IMG/VR virus record: IMGVR_UViG_3300000976_000137 | Coordinates: 1 to 50,995 of that record | Strand: one strand, 5' to 3' | Source of the DNA: a virus | Length of the DNA: 50,995 nt | Part shown: piece by piece, positions 1,697 to 48,668 of the stretch | Layout of the letters: every line of letters starts with the position of its first letter | Numbering within the stretch: the stretch's first letter is position 1 | Program-made: the position numbers and the translations under genes | The notes under the pieces: model-generated | What the model saw: only the letters and a program-made list of their open reading frames with translations | Told to the model about the DNA's origin: nothing | Database searches by the model: none

Positions 1697-2107
1697 GCTA
1701 TCCTCTTCGTCTTCAATCTCGATGCGGCTAATGTAAAGTTCATCCTCGTTGAACCTTTTTTCTATATCGGCTGGATATTCCCTTATTTCGCTGATTTTAA
1801 CCCGTAGCAAATGCTTGTGCAATTCTCTTAAATTCCTGCCTGTAATGGTAATGAGTGAGGTATAATCGAAGCGTATTACAATAGCGTGTGGTTCCCGATT
1901 AAACCAAATCCGCTTAATGGACGGAATGGGCAACGCTGTTTCATTGCCATCTTTGGGGCAGATATTGAGAAAATCAGGAGTTGCCCCATTCTGCCGAATG
2001 AGTGTATAAAAAGGAGCATCTTCCGTAATTTCTTCGGTTCTATTATTTGCTCTAGTGCTAACGGTTGGTTGCCAGCTTTTTGTTTTAAGGTTATCCTGTT
2101 GTGTCAT
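1688..2107 (-). CDS. hypothetical protein, translationally coupled to the relaxase
   Basis: 139-aa ORF. Its ATG overlaps the relaxase TGA (ATGA at 2104..2107). Confidence 0.6.
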   Translation of the reverse strand: MTQQDNLKTKSWQPTVSTRANNRTEEITEDAPFYTLIRQNGATPDFLNICPKDGNETALPIPSIKRIWFNREPHAIVIRFDYTSLITITGRNLRELHKHLLRVKISEIREYPADIEKRFNEDELYISRIEIEDEEDSKK

Positions 2108-4839
2108 AAACTATGTGTTTTTGAATGTTGATTTTGTTTTGCTTTGACTGCCGCAGCATTAGCTGACTTAGCTTGACGCTTATGTTTTGCACGAATGGCA
2201 TTTTCTACTGTGTCTTGATGATAGACCACTTCTCTTGCAGTCATGCGTTTGCCACTTTTCTTAACTCCTCGTTCTAAAGCGAGTTTGTCATCCGTAAAGA
2301 TAGTAGCTCGTTCTCTTGCTCGGCTGATGCTAACATAGAACTGTTCGGTACTGGCTGCTGGGAGCGATTGGCTAGATTGGGCAATAAAGACCCTATCGAC
2401 CGTTTTACCCTGCGAAGAGTGGGAAGTAGTGGTATAGCCATAAGCAAGATGCCCAAAGCCTTTATCCAGCACCTTACCTGTATGTAATTTGATATGCCCC
2501 TGCTTGGTGAATCCTTTGATGGTGAAAGTATCGCCATTATGGATACGTGTACCCTCACGAGTTTTGCCGCCCTTGGTAATGCGTATCTTTTCACCTTTAG
2601 CAAGCTGTAGCTCCTGTTTCTGATAGACGGTGAAGCGGTTGGCATGGCGCAATCCTAACTGATTGGAATTTCCCTCTTCCTTTCCTTCTTTCTGTGCCGA
2701 TAGGACATGAAGGTTTAAAGATTGTTCAGCGTCCAGATTCCACCTTTCGCCCTTCTTATGTCCTTGGCTATTTTGATGAAACTCGACCATTAATTTTTGT
2801 GGATGGTCGTGGTAATGGCGAATATCGCCTTTATTTTCCTCTGTCCAATTAGTCGTTTTCAGTTGTGTAAAAATACGTTCTTGCTTATCGAGCGTTCCCA
2901 ATTCTTTTAGCTCATGGCGTAAGGCAGTCGTAACTTGCTTGCCCTCTCGGTGAGTAGGAGAGACAATCAAAGCGGTTTTCTTTTGCTTGGCAGCGAGGAC
3001 ATAGCTTTGTACCAAAGCTTGCTGTCGATGTTCCTGATTCTTCAATTCAACCACGCCTCCCATTTTATCTAAATCATAAAGTGCTTTATCTGCTTCGCCT
3101 TTGGCAGCTAATGCCACAATCTTTTTAAATTGTGGACTGTTCCTTTGGCGTTGAATTTCATTAACACGAGCCACTTTGATACCGCCTTCCTGTTCAAGAA
3201 TCCGTAGTGCATCACCAGCCGCAACCGAGGAATGTTGATTTATATCGCCAGTCATTAATATGCGAGCCTCTTGCTGTTTTGCAACCTTAAATAGTTTATT
3301 CATGTCCTTGACACCAATCAAGCCAGCTTCATCAACCCAAATCACTCCCTTGTTAGTTTTCTGCTGGAATTCTTCATCAACCAATAACCGAGCCAGCGTA
3401 TCGGAATCTTTAAAACCTTCGGAGCGCATTACGCCCCGACTCGCTGCGGCAGAAGGAGCAACACCTATAAAGGGAATGTTACTTTCTTCAATGCCATCTC
3501 TGATTTCTTTAACGAGAGTGGTTTTTCCCACTCCAGCTCCTCCAGATACTATGGTCACATTATTGGTATCTTTCAAAGCATGGAAAATGGCAGCGACTTG
3601 TTCCCTGTTCAGATAATCAGCTTTAGGTTGATAGAAAGGATTAATCGGGGCTTTAGTGCCTTTGCCTTCTCGCATATAAGCAAGCATTTGATTCTCTGCT
3701 TGGAGCGCATCATCTGTCGTTAGGTAATTTTGATAATCCTTTTTCTGTTTATAGAATTTTTGACGACTAATAGCACCGTCCAATTGTTCGGGCAGTACAT
3801 CGCCATAACTCCGTTTTAGCGTCTCAGCCTTTAACTGGTACTCTTTGACGACCGACTTCCTTTCAAATAAATGATGAGTCGCCGAACTTAACGCCCCATC
3901 AACCAATACGTCTTTTTTCTTTTCACGGTCAAAAGTAGCCGAAGGCTGCGCTGCTTGTCGAATGGCTTCACTCTCCGCATCGGAAAGCCACCCCTCCCAA
4001 ACCTTTTGTAATTTCTCCCAACTCAATTTCTTTTCTTTTTTGGAACGGGTTAAAGCCCCTAGCTTATCCTTTTGTTTTGCAGTTAGTGACTCACCTTTAT
4101 TTTTAGCCGCTGCTTCGACTTCCGCAGTACGACGAGAAAATTTAGAAAGGGTAGGGGAGTCTATGCCCGATAGCTCATAACTATAACCTCGCTTATCAAT
4201 GCCATAGCCGAGGGATTTCATTTTGTTTGCCATACGAGCATTAAAAGCAGTTTCGTAATAAGGCGCAGTTTTTTTAAGCATTCCAAACTCCCCAGCTTGG
4301 AATCTTTTTTTATCCTCATTCCAAGTGGTATTCATCACAAAACAATGGCTATGTAAATGAGGGTCAGGGATGCCGTCAACAGGTCGGCTGGTTTTATGGG
4401 TGAAGCTCGCCCACACCATATTTCCCGTTAGCTTATGCTCTTTCTCTTTTCCCTGCCCCGTTTGGGTGCGCATGTCCTTTTCCATTTCTTGCATGGTGGA
4501 TTGCACCGCTCCTTGAAAGGCTTCCAAAATCCGTTCATCCTTATTGATGGCATAAGCAACGGAAACAGACTTTGGAACAGAGAACGTAAAATCATAGCCG
4601 ACCTTTCGAGTTTTGCTATGACGAGGATTAAGCTTTGAGCCATCTGGTTTTTGGTTATTGATGAGTGCGGCAAAATCTTTGGTGGCCACTTCTCCAGAAA
4701 GCCCTAAACGCTCGGCAGCCTTCCCGCCCCATCTCCCAATTGAATCCTCCCCTGTGGCATAATAATCGCCTTTGGTCAGTCCCTCCGAGAAATAGCTCAT
4801 TGCTCCTGCGGCACTCTTGCTTTGAGTTATTCGTAACAT
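2104..4839 (-). CDS. MOBF-type conjugative relaxase (TrwC/TraI-like) fused to a RecD-like helicase
   Basis: 911 aa. N-terminus 'MLRITQSKSAAGAMSYFSEGLTKGDYY' with candidate catalytic Tyr residues. His cluster 'DPHLHSHCFVMN'. Helicase Walker A 'GGAGVGKTT', Walker B 'VIWVDEAGLI', and late motif 'TSHSSQGKTVDRVFI'. Confidence 0.9.
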   Translation of the reverse strand: MLRITQSKSAAGAMSYFSEGLTKGDYYATGEDSIGRWGGKAAERLGLSGEVATKDFAALINNQKPDGSKLNPRHSKTRKVGYDFTFSVPKSVSVAYAINKDERILEAFQGAVQSTMQEMEKDMRTQTGQGKEKEHKLTGNMVWASFTHKTSRPVDGIPDPHLHSHCFVMNTTWNEDKKRFQAGEFGMLKKTAPYYETAFNARMANKMKSLGYGIDKRGYSYELSGIDSPTLSKFSRRTAEVEAAAKNKGESLTAKQKDKLGALTRSKKEKKLSWEKLQKVWEGWLSDAESEAIRQAAQPSATFDREKKKDVLVDGALSSATHHLFERKSVVKEYQLKAETLKRSYGDVLPEQLDGAISRQKFYKQKKDYQNYLTTDDALQAENQMLAYMREGKGTKAPINPFYQPKADYLNREQVAAIFHALKDTNNVTIVSGGAGVGKTTLVKEIRDGIEESNIPFIGVAPSAAASRGVMRSEGFKDSDTLARLLVDEEFQQKTNKGVIWVDEAGLIGVKDMNKLFKVAKQQEARILMTGDINQHSSVAAGDALRILEQEGGIKVARVNEIQRQRNSPQFKKIVALAAKGEADKALYDLDKMGGVVELKNQEHRQQALVQSYVLAAKQKKTALIVSPTHREGKQVTTALRHELKELGTLDKQERIFTQLKTTNWTEENKGDIRHYHDHPQKLMVEFHQNSQGHKKGERWNLDAEQSLNLHVLSAQKEGKEEGNSNQLGLRHANRFTVYQKQELQLAKGEKIRITKGGKTREGTRIHNGDTFTIKGFTKQGHIKLHTGKVLDKGFGHLAYGYTTTSHSSQGKTVDRVFIAQSSQSLPAASTEQFYVSISRARERATIFTDDKLALERGVKKSGKRMTAREVVYHQDTVENAIRAKHKRQAKSANAAAVKAKQNQHSKTHSL

Positions 4840-6789: not shown

Positions 6790-8253
6790 TTAAGATTTAA
6801 ACCAGGGTTGTTTTAAAGTCAGTTTCAAATAATTTTGACCATTGGAAAACCGTTTTCCCGTACCTGTTACAATAGCATCGACTATGCCTTTATGTTGTTT
6901 TCCTCCACGTCGAAACATAGAAAATTCTCTGGGCATGACGATGTAATGATAACTTTCTGAATGTCCTGCACTTGCTTTAAATTGCGACATATCAACCGAA
7001 CCAGAACCTAGAGAATGAATCCCCATGCCAATCGTTTTACTGGCAAATTCATTATTGATATAGTTATTTTGCGGTAAAAAGAACTTATGATTAGAAAGTG
7101 CAAAAAGGGCATTCACCTTTTCTTCTGCTGCTTTTCCTGTTCCTCCCATTTGGGCAAAAAGCGCACTAATATTTTGTGTCATCAAAATGCACCCTGCTCT
7201 CGACGAACGAGCAGTTGATAAAAATAACATATCATAGTTGTTAATGTAATGCTGATATTCATCCAAAAAAAGAATGACAGGATTAGGGCATTCATTCAAA
7301 TTTCGTGCTTCAATTTTCTTCTGTAAAATGTATTTGAACATCATTTGCGCCACTTTACCGCTATACTCATATTGCTGTATCGGTAGGTTTAATATCAATA
7401 TTTCTCCTTTCAATATGCCATCTAGGTCTAAGTTCGTACCACCACAAAAAATATTACTTAGCATGGGTGAGTTGATAAAAGGCTCTAAGATGGCACTTGT
7501 TAGACTCAAAATAGAGGACTGAGTACGGTCAGCCATAAAAGGTACTTCACGCACAAAGTAATTTTCTAAAAGCTTAAATTGGGGATGGTCTTCCCTTAAA
7601 TTTTCATGGGCTTTATTAAGCATTTGCCAGCAGAAAGAAGTTTTTTGCCAATCTTCATCTTCCAATTGTTCAGGCATTTGAGGGGCGCTACTATGAATTT
7701 TATGAAGTGTATGAATGTTAAGTTCTTCCCCTGATACCTGATTTAGCAAAATTAAACGATGCAATCTTTGGCGTTTAGCTTGTTCCCAATATTGCTCTGA
7801 ATCTTTTTTTGAACCTCCACCAAGTGATAAACCCGAAATGGTCATTAAGGCATCAACAGCTGTAATCGCCTCTTTTCCTTGATAATGATTCAGTAAATTG
7901 AAAACATCCTTATCGGTACTATTGACAATACGAATATCTTTCTCTCGTCCTTGTTTCTTTGCCCAACTCACAAATAAATCTAAATCGCTGGTTTTGTAGA
8001 GAAAAAATACCATACCGACCCTATCTTTTTCTGGTAGATGGTGAGCTTTTAGTAAATGGTTGACAAGATAATAAGCTAGTGTTGAGGTTTTGCCTGCTCC
8101 TGTAGAGCCTGTGACCAAAATATGCTCAAAAAAATCTTTCAATAATAGGTGGTCGTCTAAATGTTTGCTTCCCGTCAAATTGAGAATCGACCGTTCCATA
8201 TCTAATTTGGGCGGTGATACACCCAAATTGATAGCTTTTTTTAGAAAATTCAT
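6790..8253 (-). CDS. type IV coupling protein-like ATPase (VirD4/TraD/TraG family)
   Basis: 487 aa. Walker A 'GSTGAGKTS' and Walker B-like 'VILFLDEYQ'. Size and context fit a T4CP. No obvious N-terminal TM segments. Confidence 0.75.
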   Translation of the reverse strand: MNFLKKAINLGVSPPKLDMERSILNLTGSKHLDDHLLLKDFFEHILVTGSTGAGKTSTLAYYLVNHLLKAHHLPEKDRVGMVFFLYKTSDLDLFVSWAKKQGREKDIRIVNSTDKDVFNLLNHYQGKEAITAVDALMTISGLSLGGGSKKDSEQYWEQAKRQRLHRLILLNQVSGEELNIHTLHKIHSSAPQMPEQLEDEDWQKTSFCWQMLNKAHENLREDHPQFKLLENYFVREVPFMADRTQSSILSLTSAILEPFINSPMLSNIFCGGTNLDLDGILKGEILILNLPIQQYEYSGKVAQMMFKYILQKKIEARNLNECPNPVILFLDEYQHYINNYDMLFLSTARSSRAGCILMTQNISALFAQMGGTGKAAEEKVNALFALSNHKFFLPQNNYINNEFASKTIGMGIHSLGSGSVDMSQFKASAGHSESYHYIVMPREFSMFRRGGKQHKGIVDAIVTGTGKRFSNGQNYLKLTLKQPWFKS

Positions 8254-31416: not shown

Positions 31417-31755
31417 ATGGGTTATCCTAGATTTGAAATCGACACGGACTCGAAAGGGGAATTTCGTTTTAACTTATTTGCTGTAAACGCTAAAAACATT
31501 TTGCGCTCCAGCGAAGGTTACACCACTAAGCAAAATTGTATAAAAGCAATTGAATCTGTAAAAGCTAATGCCCCTAATGACAATCGGTACAAGCGAGGTA
31601 CTTCCAGTAATGGGCAATATTACTTTGTACTGAATGCTCGTAATGGCGAAGCATTAGGGATTAGCGAAATGTATACTACTGTTGCCAATCGTGAAAATGG
31701 TATTGCGGCAGTAAAACGAGATGCACCTGTCGTAACGATTGTCGATTTGACTTAA
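31417..31755 (+). CDS. YegP-family (tandem DUF1508) protein
   Basis: 112 aa with two repeats: 'FRFNLFAVNAKNILRSSEGYTTKQNCIKAIESVK' and 'YYFVLNARNGEALGISEMYTTVANRENGIAAVK'. Confidence 0.8.
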   Translation: MGYPRFEIDTDSKGEFRFNLFAVNAKNILRSSEGYTTKQNCIKAIESVKANAPNDNRYKRGTSSNGQYYFVLNARNGEALGISEMYTTVANRENGIAAVKRDAPVVTIVDLT

Positions 31756-31929
31756 ATTTTTCTACTGCTTTCTGCTTTTTCTGAAGTAGAAAGCAATCTT
31801 TTTTAGGCAATATTTTGGGTATGACTTATCCAAAGTAAACGGCATTGCTATGCCTAAAAATCAAATAGCGACTTACCCACTAGGTCGCTTTCACTCTATT
31901 TTTTAATCTTTTTTAAAATTTTATTTTTT

Positions 31930-33282
31930 ATGAACTTAGCTAAAATTATTAGTAAGACTTTATTCATTAGTTTTTTGTTTTGTGTTAGTTGTGATATTCC
32001 TCCAGTTGATTTATGTTCAAACGGTATTCTAGACCTAGAAAATGGTGAAATAGGAATTGACTGTGGAGGTATAAACTGTGAAGCTTGCCGACAAGTTGAC
32101 ACCTTCAAGGAAATGGTAATCATAGATACCGCAGTTGTCAATCATCCAGAAGCAAAAATTGGACGATTGTCTTTTGGTCATTTGATAAGAAATATGACTA
32201 CCGATGCTGTAACGAAGGAAGATTTAATCCTAGGCTTTTTGCAATCTTGGGAGCGAGAGCAAACCATCAATAATTTTACAGTTGCACCTAGACCTCGTAT
32301 TAATGAAAGGATAATCAAGCCTTGGATGGAAGCGGACGGTCAGGCTGGTAGTCCGATTGACGAATGGAAAATTAACTTAGATAATGCGCCTTTTAAATTA
32401 CTTGCAGTAGTTAATAGATTAGACTTGCTAAAAGTCAAGGAAGGTCGTGTTACTAATTCTGGTGAGGGACGATTTGTTTACTGTGCTGTTGATTCTAATA
32501 ATCGACCTTTGCCTTTTACGGTGATTTTCGAGTATCAATTACCGATTCTAGATACTACGCAGATTTTTCCTTTGGTCTCTAAGTGGCATAACTTGGGAGC
32601 GCATGAGACTTTTGATTCTAGTTATGTTGAAGCACTTATTGCAGTAACAGAGAACTTTGTAGGAAAAAATGTAATGCCAACTAAGCCAAACGGCAATGCC
32701 TTGAACCAGATACGGACGAATGAGGTAGCGCTTAGTGGTCCCTGGGAATTAAGAGAGTTCAACTTAGACCGAACTGAAGGGATATTCAAAGAAGTGACTA
32801 GGAAAATGACACCCGATTTTTCATTAAACGGTAGTCAGCTATTAACGAAGTTTATACAAGAAAACGAAGAAGCTATTAGGACGGGTCAATTTACAATACC
32901 CTTAGTTTATGACGGGCAACCTTTTTTGGGTGGATTTTGTCCAACCAATTCATCTTCTTTTAAATGGAATGCTCCTGGTGTAAGTAGAGAGTTAATCGAC
33001 AAGTTTTCTATAAAAACATGCAATGGTTGCCACGGAGGGGATACAGGAACACCTTTTACACATATAGGACCACCATCTACTTTGCATGAACCTGCGAGTG
33101 TATCAACATTTCTAATGGGAGAAGAAATGAGTAATAGACTTCGCCTTATGCATGAGCATTTTTTGAAAATTCAAGAATTTAATATAGCTAATAAGCCTTC
33201 TAGCAGAACAGTAGCTATGCCATTAGAAAAACAAATTTCTATCGAAGAGTTGATTAGGCGACGGGCAAATAATGTTCATTAG
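31930..33282 (+). CDS. secreted/lipoprotein-like Cys-rich protein with a single CXXCH motif
   Basis: 450 aa with the signal/lipobox-like 'FISFLFCVSC'. Contains the Cys knot 'CSNGILDLENGEIGIDCGGINCEAC' and 'CNGCHGGDTG' near the C-terminus. Family unknown. Confidence 0.6.
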   Translation: MNLAKIISKTLFISFLFCVSCDIPPVDLCSNGILDLENGEIGIDCGGINCEACRQVDTFKEMVIIDTAVVNHPEAKIGRLSFGHLIRNMTTDAVTKEDLILGFLQSWEREQTINNFTVAPRPRINERIIKPWMEADGQAGSPIDEWKINLDNAPFKLLAVVNRLDLLKVKEGRVTNSGEGRFVYCAVDSNNRPLPFTVIFEYQLPILDTTQIFPLVSKWHNLGAHETFDSSYVEALIAVTENFVGKNVMPTKPNGNALNQIRTNEVALSGPWELREFNLDRTEGIFKEVTRKMTPDFSLNGSQLLTKFIQENEEAIRTGQFTIPLVYDGQPFLGGFCPTNSSSFKWNAPGVSRELIDKFSIKTCNGCHGGDTGTPFTHIGPPSTLHEPASVSTFLMGEEMSNRLRLMHEHFLKIQEFNIANKPSSRTVAMPLEKQISIEELIRRRANNVH

Positions 33283-33326
33283 TAGCATACGTTGAAATTT
33301 AGTTTTACTAGGAACTTAGTATTAGA

Positions 33327-33370
33327 TAACTTTGTTCATATTGTACTATAACATAATGTGAACAAAGTTA
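33327..33370 (+). promoter_or_regulatory. imperfect hairpin of about 19 bp between the two genes (attenuator, terminator or operator)
   Basis: 'taactttgttcatattgt' pairs with 'acataatgtgaacaaagtta'. Confidence 0.4.
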
Positions 33371-33398
33371 CTTTAACCTTTAAAAAATCAAAATTAAT

Positions 33399-35222
33399 AT
33401 GGATATTCAACCATTAAAAGTCGATGACTTTATTCAAGAGGTGAAGCCTATTTTAGATACTCTAAGAAAAAATGTAGCACAAAACAATACAGAAATTCGA
33501 GTCTCAGATATATTCGATAAAGCAGGTAATCAGTATATTAATCTGGTTCAAGAAGGAGGTGGGCTATTAGGAATTGCTTTAGTTGGATTCACCTATGTTT
33601 TGGAAGAAATGGGCATTCGTTTCTTGAGTTTGGGAGGTACTTCTGCAGGTGCAATTAATACTATTTTTTTAGCTGATGTCGATAAACCTGCAAATAAAAA
33701 AAGTCTTGCAATTTTAAAGAAAATTGCAGGTTTTGATTTTATGCAATTTGTAGATGGAGGCAGACGTGCTAAATGGCTGGTTAATGCAATGGCTAAGGAA
33801 AAAACAGCACTAACCTACTTGTTAGCGGTAATGAATGCACCTAGATTGTTTCAGAAAAAAGGGATTAACCCAGGGACTTTTTTTGAAGACTGGTTAGAAA
33901 AAGAATTAAAGCACAAAAGGTTAGATGCCTTAGACAAGAACATAAAAGATATTCCTGACTTAATCTTAAAAGATGACTACGGGAAGGAAAGAAAGTTAGA
34001 CCCTAAAAAGTTGGCTATTAAATTAGCTATTGTAGCTGCGGATATTACTACGCAAACAAAGGTAGAGTTTCCCAAAATGGCTGAGTTGTATTTAAGAAAT
34101 CCTAAAGTCGAAAGCCCTGCCGCTTTTGTTAGAGCCTCGATGTCAATTCCTGTATTTTTTGAGCCCAAACAATTTAATCTTTCCTCTTTTACTGGTGGGA
34201 AAAAAGATTTTTATCAAGAGAGATGGAAAGCTTTAGCTGATTTTAGGTCTTCTCAACTTCCCGAAAGTGTACAGATGGTAGATGGTGGCGTGATGTCTAA
34301 CTTTCCTATTGATTTATTTCATACAGAAGACACCATTCCTTTGCGACCAACTATTGGTGTCAAATTGGGGATAGATCGGTATAATTTTAAAAAACATGGT
34401 GGCTTATTTAAATTTGCGGGGAATATTTTTGACGGAGTACGGAATTTGAGAGACCATGAGTTTTTAAAAACGAATCAGGAATATCAAGAATTAGTTGAAC
34501 ATATCAATATAGATGATATTAATTGGTTGGATTTTAACCTATCCAACGAAAATCAACTAAGATTATTTAGAGAAGGGGCGGTTGCTGCACAAAATTTTCT
34601 TAACCGTTTTAATTGGACGAATTATAAGAAGCGTTTAAAATCAGAGCTAATTCAGCGCATCAAACCACTTACTTGGGAGTTGTCTAATATTGATGATTTA
34701 GAAGGGGTATTAGAGGTTTTCAAAATAGAAAGAGGCACCCCACTTTTTGAACGGATACAGGAAATAAAAAAACGACCTGAGCCTTATAAAGTGCTTTGGG
34801 TAGATAACTCATTTACCTATACCTTGCCTATGGCTATTTTAGATAAGCTCAATATTTCTTGTATTACTGCTAATAGCTCCGAAGAAGCCTTTGATATTAT
34901 TGATGAACACGATGATATTGACTTAATTATCTCTGATTTAACCAGAGACAATAGCAATATAGGAGGTATTACACTTTGCCAGCGGCTGGCTTTAGATCCT
35001 AAGGCTAAAAATATCTCCGTATTAATTTACGTCCATAGTCAATCAAGTTTAAAAGAAAGATATTTTAAACATTTAAAGGAAACTAATGATTCTATAATCA
35101 GGTCTATCCGTTCTCCTGAAGAAGTAGAATTACCCAAAAATATAATTAATAGTATTGGTAGAAATACTGTTAGTCATAAAGAGTTTATCATGGAGGTTGT
35201 AGAAAATATTGATAAAAGCTAA
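33399..35222 (+). CDS. patatin-like phospholipase with C-terminal receiver(REC)-like domain
   Basis: 607 aa. Oxyanion 'QEGGGLLG', nucleophile 'GTSAG' and catalytic Asp 'VDGGVMSNFP'. The C-terminal 'KVLWVDNSF...DIDLIISDLTRDNSNIGGITLCQRL...ISVLIYVHS' looks CheY-like but lacks the usual acidic pair. Confidence 0.8.
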   Translation: MDIQPLKVDDFIQEVKPILDTLRKNVAQNNTEIRVSDIFDKAGNQYINLVQEGGGLLGIALVGFTYVLEEMGIRFLSLGGTSAGAINTIFLADVDKPANKKSLAILKKIAGFDFMQFVDGGRRAKWLVNAMAKEKTALTYLLAVMNAPRLFQKKGINPGTFFEDWLEKELKHKRLDALDKNIKDIPDLILKDDYGKERKLDPKKLAIKLAIVAADITTQTKVEFPKMAELYLRNPKVESPAAFVRASMSIPVFFEPKQFNLSSFTGGKKDFYQERWKALADFRSSQLPESVQMVDGGVMSNFPIDLFHTEDTIPLRPTIGVKLGIDRYNFKKHGGLFKFAGNIFDGVRNLRDHEFLKTNQEYQELVEHINIDDINWLDFNLSNENQLRLFREGAVAAQNFLNRFNWTNYKKRLKSELIQRIKPLTWELSNIDDLEGVLEVFKIERGTPLFERIQEIKKRPEPYKVLWVDNSFTYTLPMAILDKLNISCITANSSEEAFDIIDEHDDIDLIISDLTRDNSNIGGITLCQRLALDPKAKNISVLIYVHSQSSLKERYFKHLKETNDSIIRSIRSPEEVELPKNIINSIGRNTVSHKEFIMEVVENIDKS

Positions 35223-42807: not shown

Positions 42808-44217
42808 TTAACGATGCTTTTCTAATTTCTTAATTTCAGTATCTAGCTGCTTTTGTTTTTGATAGAGTTCCCTAACCTCTGCAAATAACTCTGGATAATT
42901 GGCTTCTAATTGGATATTAATTTGAGAACTAACTATCGGACTTTGATGATAATTTTCATGCGGAGACAGATTTTTCTTTAATGTTCTAAAGCTACTACCC
43001 TGTTCTTTTTTTTCGATTACTTGATAAGCTTCCATAAAAGCAGCTTCATTATTGACCAACTTAATTAAAATCGGTTCTCTCAATTTTCGATATTGTTGAT
43101 TGATAATCTCTCTTTGTTTTTCAAGCTTGACTATCTGTAGATGCCTATCTTTTCGCTGTTTTGCTATTTCTCGTTTCTTTTGCTCTTGGAACACCTTTGG
43201 TGTTTTCCAATCTTCTCGTAATGCTTTGATTAAGAAACCCGCAGGGTTACTTCCTGCTGTTTTTGATTGGTCTAGCAAAGTAATTTTCTCTAAATAATAT
43301 ATTTCTATTGTTTTACATCGAGTTATCGCCTCTTTGCGACTGGATTCATTTTGAATCAAATCAAAACCTTGCTTTTGAAGATTATCTATGTTCTCAATAC
43401 TAATCCCTATTTTAGTTAATTTTTGAGTGATTGTATCTGATAGATTGGGCTTTTCTTTAATTTCAATCGAATCTGTTAGAAAATCTAATACCCCTTGTTT
43501 TGACTCTTCGCTTTTGGGTTCATTTGGATAAATGTAGAAAATCAATCCAATGACTTTCTTACCTTCTTTGATTTCTTCAAAATCAAATCGTATATCTGTG
43601 TGTTTTATTAATTCTGATTGTGCTTTTAATATTGCCTTTTTTTTAACATGACCATAAAGGTTGTAGTTGCAGCCAATGAGTCTTTTTAAATCTTCTAGCT
43701 CAAATGTACGTTTTCCTATCTTTTTATACTGAATGAGTATTTCATAAATCCTAATCGAATAAGAACTTTTCAGACTAGGAAGGTTCTTTAATTGATAAGT
43801 TGTATAGTTACGTTGTAATTCCAATAAATGCTCTTTTAATCGCCCAGATATTTCAAAGACAGTCACATCTTCTCGCCAGTCATTCTCCCAAGAGGAAATC
43901 AGAAAAGCATTTAGTATTGTTCCTTTATCTGTCAGTAATCGAATTGGTTCTTCATTCAATTGCTTGCAGATATTTTCTAAATCGGCATTGAATCGGTTGT
44001 AAGGCACATTTTTCTTATATCCTAAATACTGTCTAATATCTGAGTTTTTAACTCGTGTTAAGCGAAAGTCTTTATCATCAGGGCTAATTTTTGCCACAAT
44101 CAATCGCCCGACTTTCAAGGTCTTGGCGGGAAGCTTCGCCTTAGAATAATCAGCTTCAATCAACTTATTCGATTGAGTGACAAGGTGTTTTTCGGATGAT
44201 TTAGTATTTGTTGACAT
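42808..44217 (-). CDS. plasmid replication initiator (Rep_3/RepB-like)
   Basis: 469 aa. 'LVTQSNKLIEADYSKAKLPAKTLKV' is the characteristic Rep_3 N-terminus. The iteron array lies directly upstream. Confidence 0.85.
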   Translation of the reverse strand: MSTNTKSSEKHLVTQSNKLIEADYSKAKLPAKTLKVGRLIVAKISPDDKDFRLTRVKNSDIRQYLGYKKNVPYNRFNADLENICKQLNEEPIRLLTDKGTILNAFLISSWENDWREDVTVFEISGRLKEHLLELQRNYTTYQLKNLPSLKSSYSIRIYEILIQYKKIGKRTFELEDLKRLIGCNYNLYGHVKKKAILKAQSELIKHTDIRFDFEEIKEGKKVIGLIFYIYPNEPKSEESKQGVLDFLTDSIEIKEKPNLSDTITQKLTKIGISIENIDNLQKQGFDLIQNESSRKEAITRCKTIEIYYLEKITLLDQSKTAGSNPAGFLIKALREDWKTPKVFQEQKKREIAKQRKDRHLQIVKLEKQREIINQQYRKLREPILIKLVNNEAAFMEAYQVIEKKEQGSSFRTLKKNLSPHENYHQSPIVSSQINIQLEANYPELFAEVRELYQKQKQLDTEIKKLEKHR

Positions 44218-47454: not shown

Positions 47455-47685
47455 ATGGCAAAGATTAAACCTCGTATCAAAAAAGACCTAAGCGCTGTAG
47501 AGCAAGAAAAAGCCCTGCAAAAGCTTCAATCACAAGATAAGAAAAAGAAAGTCCAACGAGTTACTGTTGATTTTCCACTTTATATCTATGACCAAGTAAA
47601 GCTAGAAACAGAAGATACTGGGCAAACGATTAAAGGCTTTATTGTAGGGCTAGTCCGAGAACATTTTGCAAAGAAAGATTTATGA
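47455..47685 (+). CDS. small ParG-like ribbon-helix-helix partition protein (tentative centromere binder)
   Basis: 76 aa with a basic N-terminal tail and 'KVQRVTVDFPLYIYDQVKLETEDTGQTIKGFIVGLVREHF' (RHH-like), immediately after parA. Confidence 0.55.
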   Translation: MAKIKPRIKKDLSAVEQEKALQKLQSQDKKKKVQRVTVDFPLYIYDQVKLETEDTGQTIKGFIVGLVREHFAKKDL

Positions 47686-48668
47686 ATTCAGCCCAAGCCA
47701 ATAATATTAACATGCCTGATTTGCTTTCTCGCCTGGGGCATGAACCAACTTCTATCACAAAAGGTGGCAGAGAGTTATGGTATCTTTCCCCTTTACCAGG
47801 CAGGGAAGGAGAGAAAGAAGCTTCTTTTCATATCTCCAGAGGGCGAAAATGGGCGTGGGTATGGAATGATTTTGGCGATATTGGCGGTACGGTGATTGAC
47901 TTTATCATGCGATATAAGGGGTATAATAGAGTTAGAGAAGCTTTAAGCTTTCTCGATAACAACTATCGAGGAAAGGCTCTAATTTCCAATCAGAATAGGG
48001 CAGGGGAGAGTAATACTTATCATCCAAACCTTTTTTCTTCTCACTCGCAAAAAACAAACACTTCTTTAAGTGAAGAGAAGGAATTAGAATTCCTATCGGC
48101 TTATGATATTCAAAATCCCTTGATTTTCTCTTATCTAAGCAAAGAACGCTGCATTCCTAAGGGTTTAGTCAAGAAATACCTTAAAGAGGTCAAATATCGC
48201 AATAAAAGGACAAATAAGGAGTATTTTGCTTTTGGAATGAAAAATGAATCAGGAGGATATGAGATTCGAGCAGCATCTGACAAGTATAAATTTAAATCTG
48301 CCCTTAAATCTCGTGATATTACCGTCATAAAGGGGAGTAAGCCCGAACGACATAGTGTCAATATTTTTGAGGGAATGACGGATTACCTTAGTTTACTCGC
48401 CATGAAGAATGATGAGCAATTTGAAGGAGATGCAATCGTCTTACATTCGCTTTCCTCTTACAAGAAGGCAGCTCAATATCTCAAAGAGCATGATTATAAG
48501 CATATTCATACTTTTCTTGATAATAACCCTTCTGGTGAGAAACACACAAAACGATTTTGTGAGGAATTTGGCGATTTGGTGACTCCTCAAAATCATCTTT
48601 TTGAACGATATGAAGATTTAAACGATGCGCTAAAAGCTAATCAACTATCCAATTACCTTTCTCGTTAA
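47682..48668 (+). CDS. toprim-domain primase-like protein
   Basis: 328 aa. The N-terminus 'PDLLSRLGHEPTS...ELWYLSPL...EASFHIS...WNDFGDIGGTVIDFIM' resembles primase-like proteins of Bacteroidota mobile elements. The C-terminal 'IFEGMTDYLS...FLDNNPSGEK' is toprim-like. The start overlaps the upstream stop (ATGA). Confidence 0.7.
   Translation: MNSAQANNINMPDLLSRLGHEPTSITKGGRELWYLSPLPGREGEKEASFHISRGRKWAWVWNDFGDIGGTVIDFIMRYKGYNRVREALSFLDNNYRGKALISNQNRAGESNTYHPNLFSSHSQKTNTSLSEEKELEFLSAYDIQNPLIFSYLSKERCIPKGLVKKYLKEVKYRNKRTNKEYFAFGMKNESGGYEIRAASDKYKFKSALKSRDITVIKGSKPERHSVNIFEGMTDYLSLLAMKNDEQFEGDAIVLHSLSSYKKAAQYLKEHDYKHIHTFLDNNPSGEKHTKRFCEEFGDLVTPQNHLFERYEDLNDALKANQLSNYLSR

Follow-up and report, generated by a model that had tools for sequence, protein, structure and literature searches.

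A patatin-like lipase with a predicted C-terminal pseudo-receiver and an exported CXXCH lipoprotein: probably two independent cargo genes of a mobilisable plasmid

Can an exported protein with a c-type haem-attachment pattern and a patatin-like lipase with a receiver-like domain, encoded side by side on one strand, work together as sensor and effector? This question is raised by positions 31,930 to 35,222 of the IMG/VR record IMGVR_UViG_3300000976_000137, of which positions 1 to 50,995 (50,995 nucleotides, in the following called the window) were analysed. Both open reading frames (ORFs) listed in an earlier note on this DNA are present on the plus strand. The first (31930-33282) encodes a 450-residue exported lipoprotein of a large family that lacks a Pfam model and shares an invariant CXXCH motif, the second (33399-35222) a 607-residue, cytoplasmic patatin-like lipase with a C-terminal pseudo-receiver. 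The answer that we favour, with moderate confidence, is that the two genes do not form a system but represent independent cargo of a mobilisable plasmid, namely a patatin lipase equipped with a putative kinase-independent switch and an exported, probably mono-haem lipoprotein.

The gene neighbourhoods of homologues were surveyed in both directions. With a patatin-family profile, 80 loci were collected, a single genome being used for each species and flanks of up to 10 kb being included on each side, and two loci from relatives were added; tblastn with the 450-residue protein gave no match in these 82 patatin-homologue loci. Conversely, a profile of the 450-residue family yielded 80 metagenome loci (664 kb in total), and tblastn with the 607-residue protein found no match in any of them. 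The idea of a sensor/effector pair, which the earlier note had made dependent on both genes being conserved together, is thus contradicted from either direction. Searches of 15 genomes of the same genus yielded neither gene, and one genome of the same family contains the patatin gene at 53% identity with the relative of the 450-residue protein being absent. In Lewinella/Neolewinella, where orthologues of the patatin gene are found in conserved chromosomal synteny, the neighbours are unrelated genes of a housekeeping type, including a tRNA methyltransferase-like gene, a reprolysin of the type IX secretion system (T9SS), an S10 peptidase and an ABC transporter. Receiver-less patatin relatives of about 415 residues have no conserved neighbours. 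Around members of the 450-residue family, the only conserved neighbours belong to the large paralogous Ser/Thr and hybrid kinase families typical of myxobacterial genomes or are antisense ORF artefacts, and these candidates were rejected.

The catalytic domain of the 607-residue protein comprises residues 49-307 (33543..34319, plus strand) and is matched by Pfam PF01734 with an E-value of 3.7e-22 and a score of 79.9 bits, the gathering cut-off being 27.7. The patatin hallmarks recognised in the earlier note, GGG (residues 53-55), GTSAG (residues 80-84, including Ser82) and DGG (residues 295-297, including Asp295), turned out to be invariant in 55 relatives. Judged by these motifs, the protein is a predicted serine lipase of the patatin type in which both the Ser-Asp dyad and the oxyanion loop are complete. 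The GGG motif of patatins is usually followed by a basic residue; in the 607-residue protein, this position is occupied by Leu. The catalytic domain continues into an extension conserved within the subfamily (residues 308-455; 34320..34763, plus strand), which displays conserved columns at R348-F355, W376, F379 and L389-W406 and is also found in the receiver-less relatives of about 415 residues (patatin-only proteins range from 401 to 467 residues). A signal peptide was not detected in the 607-residue protein. About 2000 homologues were found, and the full architecture of 600 residues occurs mainly in Lewinellaceae and Saprospiraceae with about 50% identity.

The C-terminal 183 residues, modelled with AF2 on the basis of 107 aligned sequences, display the beta-alpha pattern of a (βα)5 receiver with a predicted local distance difference test score (pLDDT) of 93.7. 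Among the top 50 PDB matches of a Foldseek search almost all are receiver domains (best E-value 1.6e-4, probability 1.00, template-modelling score by target up to 0.74). Combined with alignment mapping, these results place a receiver-fold pseudo-receiver at about residues 463-603 (34785..35207, plus strand). The proposal of a receiver-like C-terminus was borne out by the structural search that had been suggested for it, and the residue mapping agrees with the pseudo-receiver considered in the earlier note. In sequence searches, PF00072 gave no match in the 607-residue protein itself at E <= 1 and was reached by 15 of its 55 relatives, and the matches of the protein to NCBIfam response-regulator models are weak, with E-values of 0.004-0.14.

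In profile matches to CheY structures, VLWVDN (residues 464-470), in agreement with the 'WVDN' read previously, aligns with the DD site and IISD with the acceptor Asp. The active site was mapped by sequence, using alignments to canonical receivers and an alignment of the domain alone. The first acidic site, in the pair that closes β1, corresponds to D469, which is invariant. The second corresponds to N470; most relatives carry an Asp here, and the acidic pair DD is not present in the 607-residue protein. The acceptor Asp, located at the end of β3, is represented by the invariant D513, the counterpart of this residue in alignments with CheY4 and hybrid-kinase receivers. The Thr site at the end of β4 falls on Y544/V545, the alignment being ambiguous by one residue, and the relatives show no conserved Ser or Thr in this place. 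At the Lys site, located at the end of β5, an invariant Asn (N584) is found. Additional invariant residues are W467, R516, which is positioned three residues past the acceptor, and G523. A side observation concerns a 19-residue insertion (KHLKETNDSIIRSIRSPEE, residues 559-577, about 35073-35129) between helix 4 and strand 5; among the sequences compared, an insertion of such length is restricted to the 607-residue protein and its relative with 86% identity, and a few others have a shorter one.

A review of the Bourret laboratory (J Bacteriol 2025, PMC12632262) defines a pseudo-receiver as a receiver fold without at least one of the residues DD, D, T and K. As modelled and aligned here, the C-terminal domain is a pseudo-receiver by this definition because the second acidic residue is replaced by Asn, the Thr is missing and the Lys position is taken by an invariant Asn. 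However, most pseudo-receivers discussed in the review are located N-terminal to DNA-binding outputs or have lost the Asp, whereas the clade of the 607-residue protein has retained the Asp pocket, lacks the Thr and Lys to which the phosphoryl group binds, and is placed C-terminal to an enzyme.

The relatives of this domain provide a hint at its function. A receiver-domain profile run against 1.84 billion representatives retrieved only 2624 proteins at E <= 1e-3, and within its own genome the 607-residue protein was the sole match. Given this narrow catch, the profile describes a distinct clade and not receivers at large. The signature of the clade is LWxDD ... SDxxR ... G ... FY ... GITN, with an invariant Arg three residues past the acceptor Asp. 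Matches other than patatins are mostly 200-260 residues long and carry the signature at the C-terminus. Among 130 short matches of the clade, PF00072 was found in 117, EAD11 in 21, TIR in up to 5 and a trypsin-like peptidase in 1. Longer matches show the architectures KAP nucleoside triphosphatase (NTPase)-receiver, receiver-SLOG-pYEATS, receiver-EAD11-trypsin, receiver-TPR and receiver-trypsin-FGE. In many of the proteins P0246-P0387 (200-260 residues), an N-terminal transmembrane helix or EAD11 is combined with the clade receiver, and in P0286 the receiver is joined to SLOG and prokaryotic YEATS domains.

The partners EAD11, TIR, trypsin, KAP NTPase and SLOG are typical modules of conflict systems. 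Receivers have been described among conflict-system effectors without any histidine kinase (Kaur et al., eLife 2020, PMC7159879) and were predicted to be nucleotide-responsive switches (Kaur et al., eLife 2021, PMC8195603); patatin goes unmentioned in both papers. The EAD-receiver proteins of Kaur, Burroughs, Iyer and Aravind are part of the vWA-MoxR/VMAP ternary, iSTAND2 and TERNS3 systems. Receivers linked to EAD11, TIR, trypsin, KAP NTPase or SLOG share the signature LWxDD/SDxxR/GITN with the patatin fusions from which the profile was built and have no associated histidine kinase. In contrast to the published systems, the receiver of the 607-residue protein is fused directly to patatin, and no EAD adaptor, NTPase or vWA partner is found nearby. 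Since the closest receiver relatives sit in conflict-system architectures, gating of the lipase by the pseudo-receiver, as suggested before, is plausible.

Patatin-like phospholipases are known as effectors of defence systems, for example CapV of the cyclic oligonucleotide-based antiphage signalling system (CBASS). With CapV-like effectors, the 607-residue protein has in common a Ser-Asp lipase that probably needs an activating signal. However, the locus contains neither a cyclase nor another CBASS gene, and regulation would run via the fused receiver-fold domain and not via direct nucleotide binding by the lipase. In Escherichia coli, the gene of the patatin-like protein RssA adjoins that of RssB, a phosphorylatable receiver adaptor for the proteolysis of RpoS. 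This arrangement likewise links patatin-like and receiver proteins, but as separate genes, and the likeness is one at the level of domain families. The name 'RssA' also occurs in source names of homologues of the 607-residue protein. Literature searches on patatin-receiver fusions found nothing relevant.

From the domain identities, the residue patterns and the architectures of the relatives, we infer the following mode of action. The pseudo-receiver would act as a switch that is independent of a histidine kinase and answers to a ligand, a nucleotide or a partner protein, and would keep the lipase off until a trigger arrives, which could be infection or another conflict signal, and the released lipase would then attack membrane phospholipids.

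Several points weigh against the interpretation as two unrelated cargo genes, one of which encodes a lipase under a kinase-independent switch. None of the PADLOC models gave a significant match (the best, a phospholipase model, reached an E-value of 0.014 with the 607-residue protein), and a ligand of the LWxDD/SDxxR/GITN receivers is so far hypothetical. Since the domain has conserved both its acidic pocket and the acceptor Asp, phosphorylation or metal binding may occur. Moreover, the closest metagenomic relatives of the 607-residue protein (86% identity) and of the 450-residue protein (73% identity) were each found on two contigs, the longest of which has 5845 bases. These relatives may be adjacent on a sister plasmid, which would amount to a short-range conservation of the pair; adjacency among relatives this close would reflect common descent only. 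Finally, the stable chromosomal synteny in Lewinella/Neolewinella is compatible with a housekeeping lipid enzyme no less than with a defence gene.

The latter point is central to the alternative that the 607-residue protein is a housekeeping lipase, involved in lipid remodelling or signalling, and not a conflict effector, the plasmid copy being incidental. The synteny of the orthologues, the missing PADLOC match and the wide occurrence of the receiver-less relatives of about 415 residues, again without conserved neighbours, all agree with such a role. However, the other fusion partners of the clade (EAD11, TIR, trypsin, KAP NTPase, SLOG) are hallmark conflict modules, the plasmid copy is surrounded by an RHS toxin, an antitoxin-like ImmA gene and a candidate GTPase defence pair, and the gene was not found in the 15 congeners. 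A housekeeping function is therefore possible but, on balance, somewhat unlikely.

An unlikely alternative to the kinase-independent switch is a working receiver, in which Asp513 is phosphorylated by an orphan histidine kinase encoded on the chromosome or by acetyl phosphate, and Arg516 replaces the missing Lys. The invariance of D469 and D513, the Asp that most relatives carry at the second acidic site and the 15 of 55 relatives that reach PF00072 are in line with phosphorylation, and potential donors exist in the genome, in which 43 HATPase_c matches were counted, histidine kinases included. However, the Lys is replaced by an invariant Asn, the Thr site lacks a conserved Ser or Thr, and the 607-residue protein itself has Asn at the metal-binding second acidic site. 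No kinase adjoins any of about 25 patatin-receiver loci, and relatives from the receiver clade belong to systems for which Kaur et al. (PMC7159879) reported no histidine kinases. On the plasmid contig, HATPase_c gave 0 matches compared with the 43 elsewhere in the genome, and neither a cyclase nor a kinase was found among the neighbours of both genes. The previous statement that no kinase lies nearby thus holds, and none of the known systems considered, CBASS or a two-component pair, is present.

The preferred reading assigns a separate role to the 450-residue protein. Its signal peptide (residues 1-21; 31930..31992, plus strand) ends with FCVSC, forms a helix in the model (residues 2-18) and leads up to the probable lipidated Cys21, whose column is kept in 74% of 88 relatives. 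The single CNGCH of the protein (residues 364-368; 33019..33033, plus strand) constitutes a probable c-type haem attachment site. Signal peptide and CNGCH had both been pointed out in the earlier note and could be confirmed. CXXCH is present in 120 of the 120 homologues listed, 7 of which have no other Cys, and this conservation, which had been proposed as a check, fits haem attachment. The family alignment shows no variation at C364, C367 and H368 or at several Arg, Asp and Glu residues, and M89, H220, H378 and the C-terminal H450 are at least 90% conserved. The 'Cys knot' described near the N-terminus does exist as a motif, a four-Cys module of the type C-x-N-G...D-C-G-G-x-x-C-x-x-C with the sequence CSNG...DCGGINCEAC (residues 29-53; 32014..32088, plus strand); however, this module is accessory, as only 11 of 120 homologues possess it. 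In the relatives P0128, P0129, P0131, P0133, P0135 and P0145, the last Cys pair of this module is part of a CXXCH (e.g. CDPCH) and thus of a second possible haem motif; the 450-residue protein itself reads CEACR.

Pfam and NCBIfam gave no matches for the 450-residue protein, and in none of 88 relatives is the core covered by a Pfam model. The family comprises at least 828 homologous clusters at 90% identity, and the Atlas cluster has 3435 members. Its members originate from Myxococcota, Planctomycetota, Bacteroidota and others, mostly from Myxococcota and soil bacteria, and fusions to LamG, discoidin, Big or CARDB domains occur in some of them. The AF2 model (pLDDT 91.4) shows a fold that is not thioredoxin-like. 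The structural search recommended for this protein was unproductive, since Foldseek found no match in the PDB (best E-value 0.18). Weak profile matches to cytochromes c555/c552 were obtained around CNGCH. In a VIA-align fold search with the model, chains of cytochrome c'-beta and cytochrome P460 (7s5o, 6hiu, 2je3) were the top three of 48,161. Like the 450-residue protein, these cytochromes are exported and rich in beta-sheet, with a single CXXCH towards the C-terminal part of the fold. Kinship to the cytochrome P460/c'-beta family (PF16694) was not confirmed by profile-profile comparison and is treated as a lead only. The same genome has three tandem matches to the cytochrome P460 family (PF16694) on another contig (C442, about 923-2592). 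Literature searches on the CNGCH motif found nothing relevant.

The features expected of a c-type cytochrome, namely CXXCH, an export signal and a maturation system in the host, are all found, the last represented by genes for cytochrome c assembly of the CcsA type, as two PF01578 matches in the genome exceed the cut-off. Based on its sequence, the 450-residue protein is probably a lipid-anchored mono-haem c protein of an undescribed family. It would be exported, anchored to the membrane through a lipid at Cys21 and loaded with one haem c attached to C364 and C367, with H368 as proximal ligand. With its many invariant charged residues, the protein may be a redox enzyme or bind a small ligand outside the cytoplasm. 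It seems improbable that the CXXCH instead forms a redox-active or metal-binding Cys pair. In favour of such a pair, the protein is not matched by any Pfam cytochrome model and its fold matches to haem proteins are weak; however, the second Cys is directly followed by His in all 120 homologues, the two Cys are the only ones in 7 relatives, the protein is exported from a host with cytochrome c maturation machinery, and the model does not resemble thioredoxin.

A two-gene system, with the exported CXXCH protein as sensor and the patatin-receiver protein as its effector, is highly improbable: although both genes share one strand of a plasmid with abundant conflict cargo and are separated by 116 nt, and the nearest metagenomic relatives of both proteins may share the 5845-base contig, the pairing is unsupported because there is no co-occurrence from either side (82 and 80 loci) and one product is exported while the other has no signal peptide, and in addition no membrane-spanning link connects the extracytoplasmic and the cytoplasmic product, the taxonomic ranges differ (mostly Myxococcota and soil bacteria for the 450-residue family, Saprospirales-type Bacteroidota for the 607-residue protein) and a strong hairpin separates the genes.

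This hairpin (about 33322-33375, plus strand) occupies part of the 116-nt gap and is imperfect, as had been reported, with a stem of about 23 pairs and one bulge. Its fold has an energy of -24.1 kcal/mol with a z of -3.55 relative to shuffled sequences. The core (33327-33370) contains an 11-bp perfect inverted repeat, AACTTTGTTCA ... TGAACAAAGTT. The hairpin was missed by a consensus terminator scan and could be a terminator, a stabiliser of the mRNA end or an operator palindrome for a dimeric regulator. A repeated element was considered and ruled out, since the hairpin occurs a single time in the 6.4-Mb genome.

Directly upstream of the 450-residue gene lies a gene with two DUF1508 (YegP-like) repeats (31417-31755, plus strand), which has a strong terminator of its own, an intrinsic-terminator-like hairpin with a T run (31766..31795, plus strand; 13-pair stem, tail ATCTTTTTTA) on its 3' side. 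Because this site closes the DUF1508 gene, the 450-residue gene opens a new transcription unit. In the wider surroundings, a TrwC relaxase-helicase (window positions 2104-4839), a type IV coupling protein (6790-8253), a Rep3 initiator (42808-44217) and a Toprim protein (47682-48668) are encoded. The presence of relaxase, coupling protein and Rep3 identifies the window as a mobilisable plasmid; its source genome is a 6.4-Mb Bacteroidota assembly. The cargo of the plasmid includes an RHS toxin with a T9SS-tagged M43-like partner, an HTH-ImmA/IrrE gene, DUF6876 and a membrane GTPase pair, and the 607-residue gene is positioned between the RHS toxin, the antitoxin-like ImmA gene and the candidate GTPase defence pair. 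IMG/VR scans with both proteins gave no matches, and PLSDB contains distant patatins only (25-28% identity) and no relatives of the 450-residue protein.

Taken singly, neither of the genes is categorically new; in the patatin-pseudo-receiver fusion, a described class of receivers is tied to a simple enzymatic output. A bolder interpretation, offered tentatively and with low confidence, is that the LWxDD/SDxxR/GITN clade is a ligand or nucleotide switch independent of kinases, that its fusion to patatin is a one-protein plasmid module for abortive infection or addiction which destroys membranes in response to a conflict signal, and that the 450-residue protein founds a new fold family of extracellular mono-haem c lipoproteins with thousands of members. 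The negative result is of importance as well, as adjacency on this plasmid is no evidence of a system. Demonstration of haem in one member of the 450-residue family would annotate thousands of 'hypothetical lipoproteins', many of which carry carbohydrate-binding or adhesion domains. Should the receiver clade prove to be a switch that works without a kinase, the patatin fusion would offer the simplest system for identifying its trigger, since a single protein is involved, its output, lipase activity or toxicity, is easily assayed, and no adaptor or NTPase is present. This would also clarify the many EAD11-, TIR- and trypsin-linked receivers of conflict systems, whose role is so far a prediction only.

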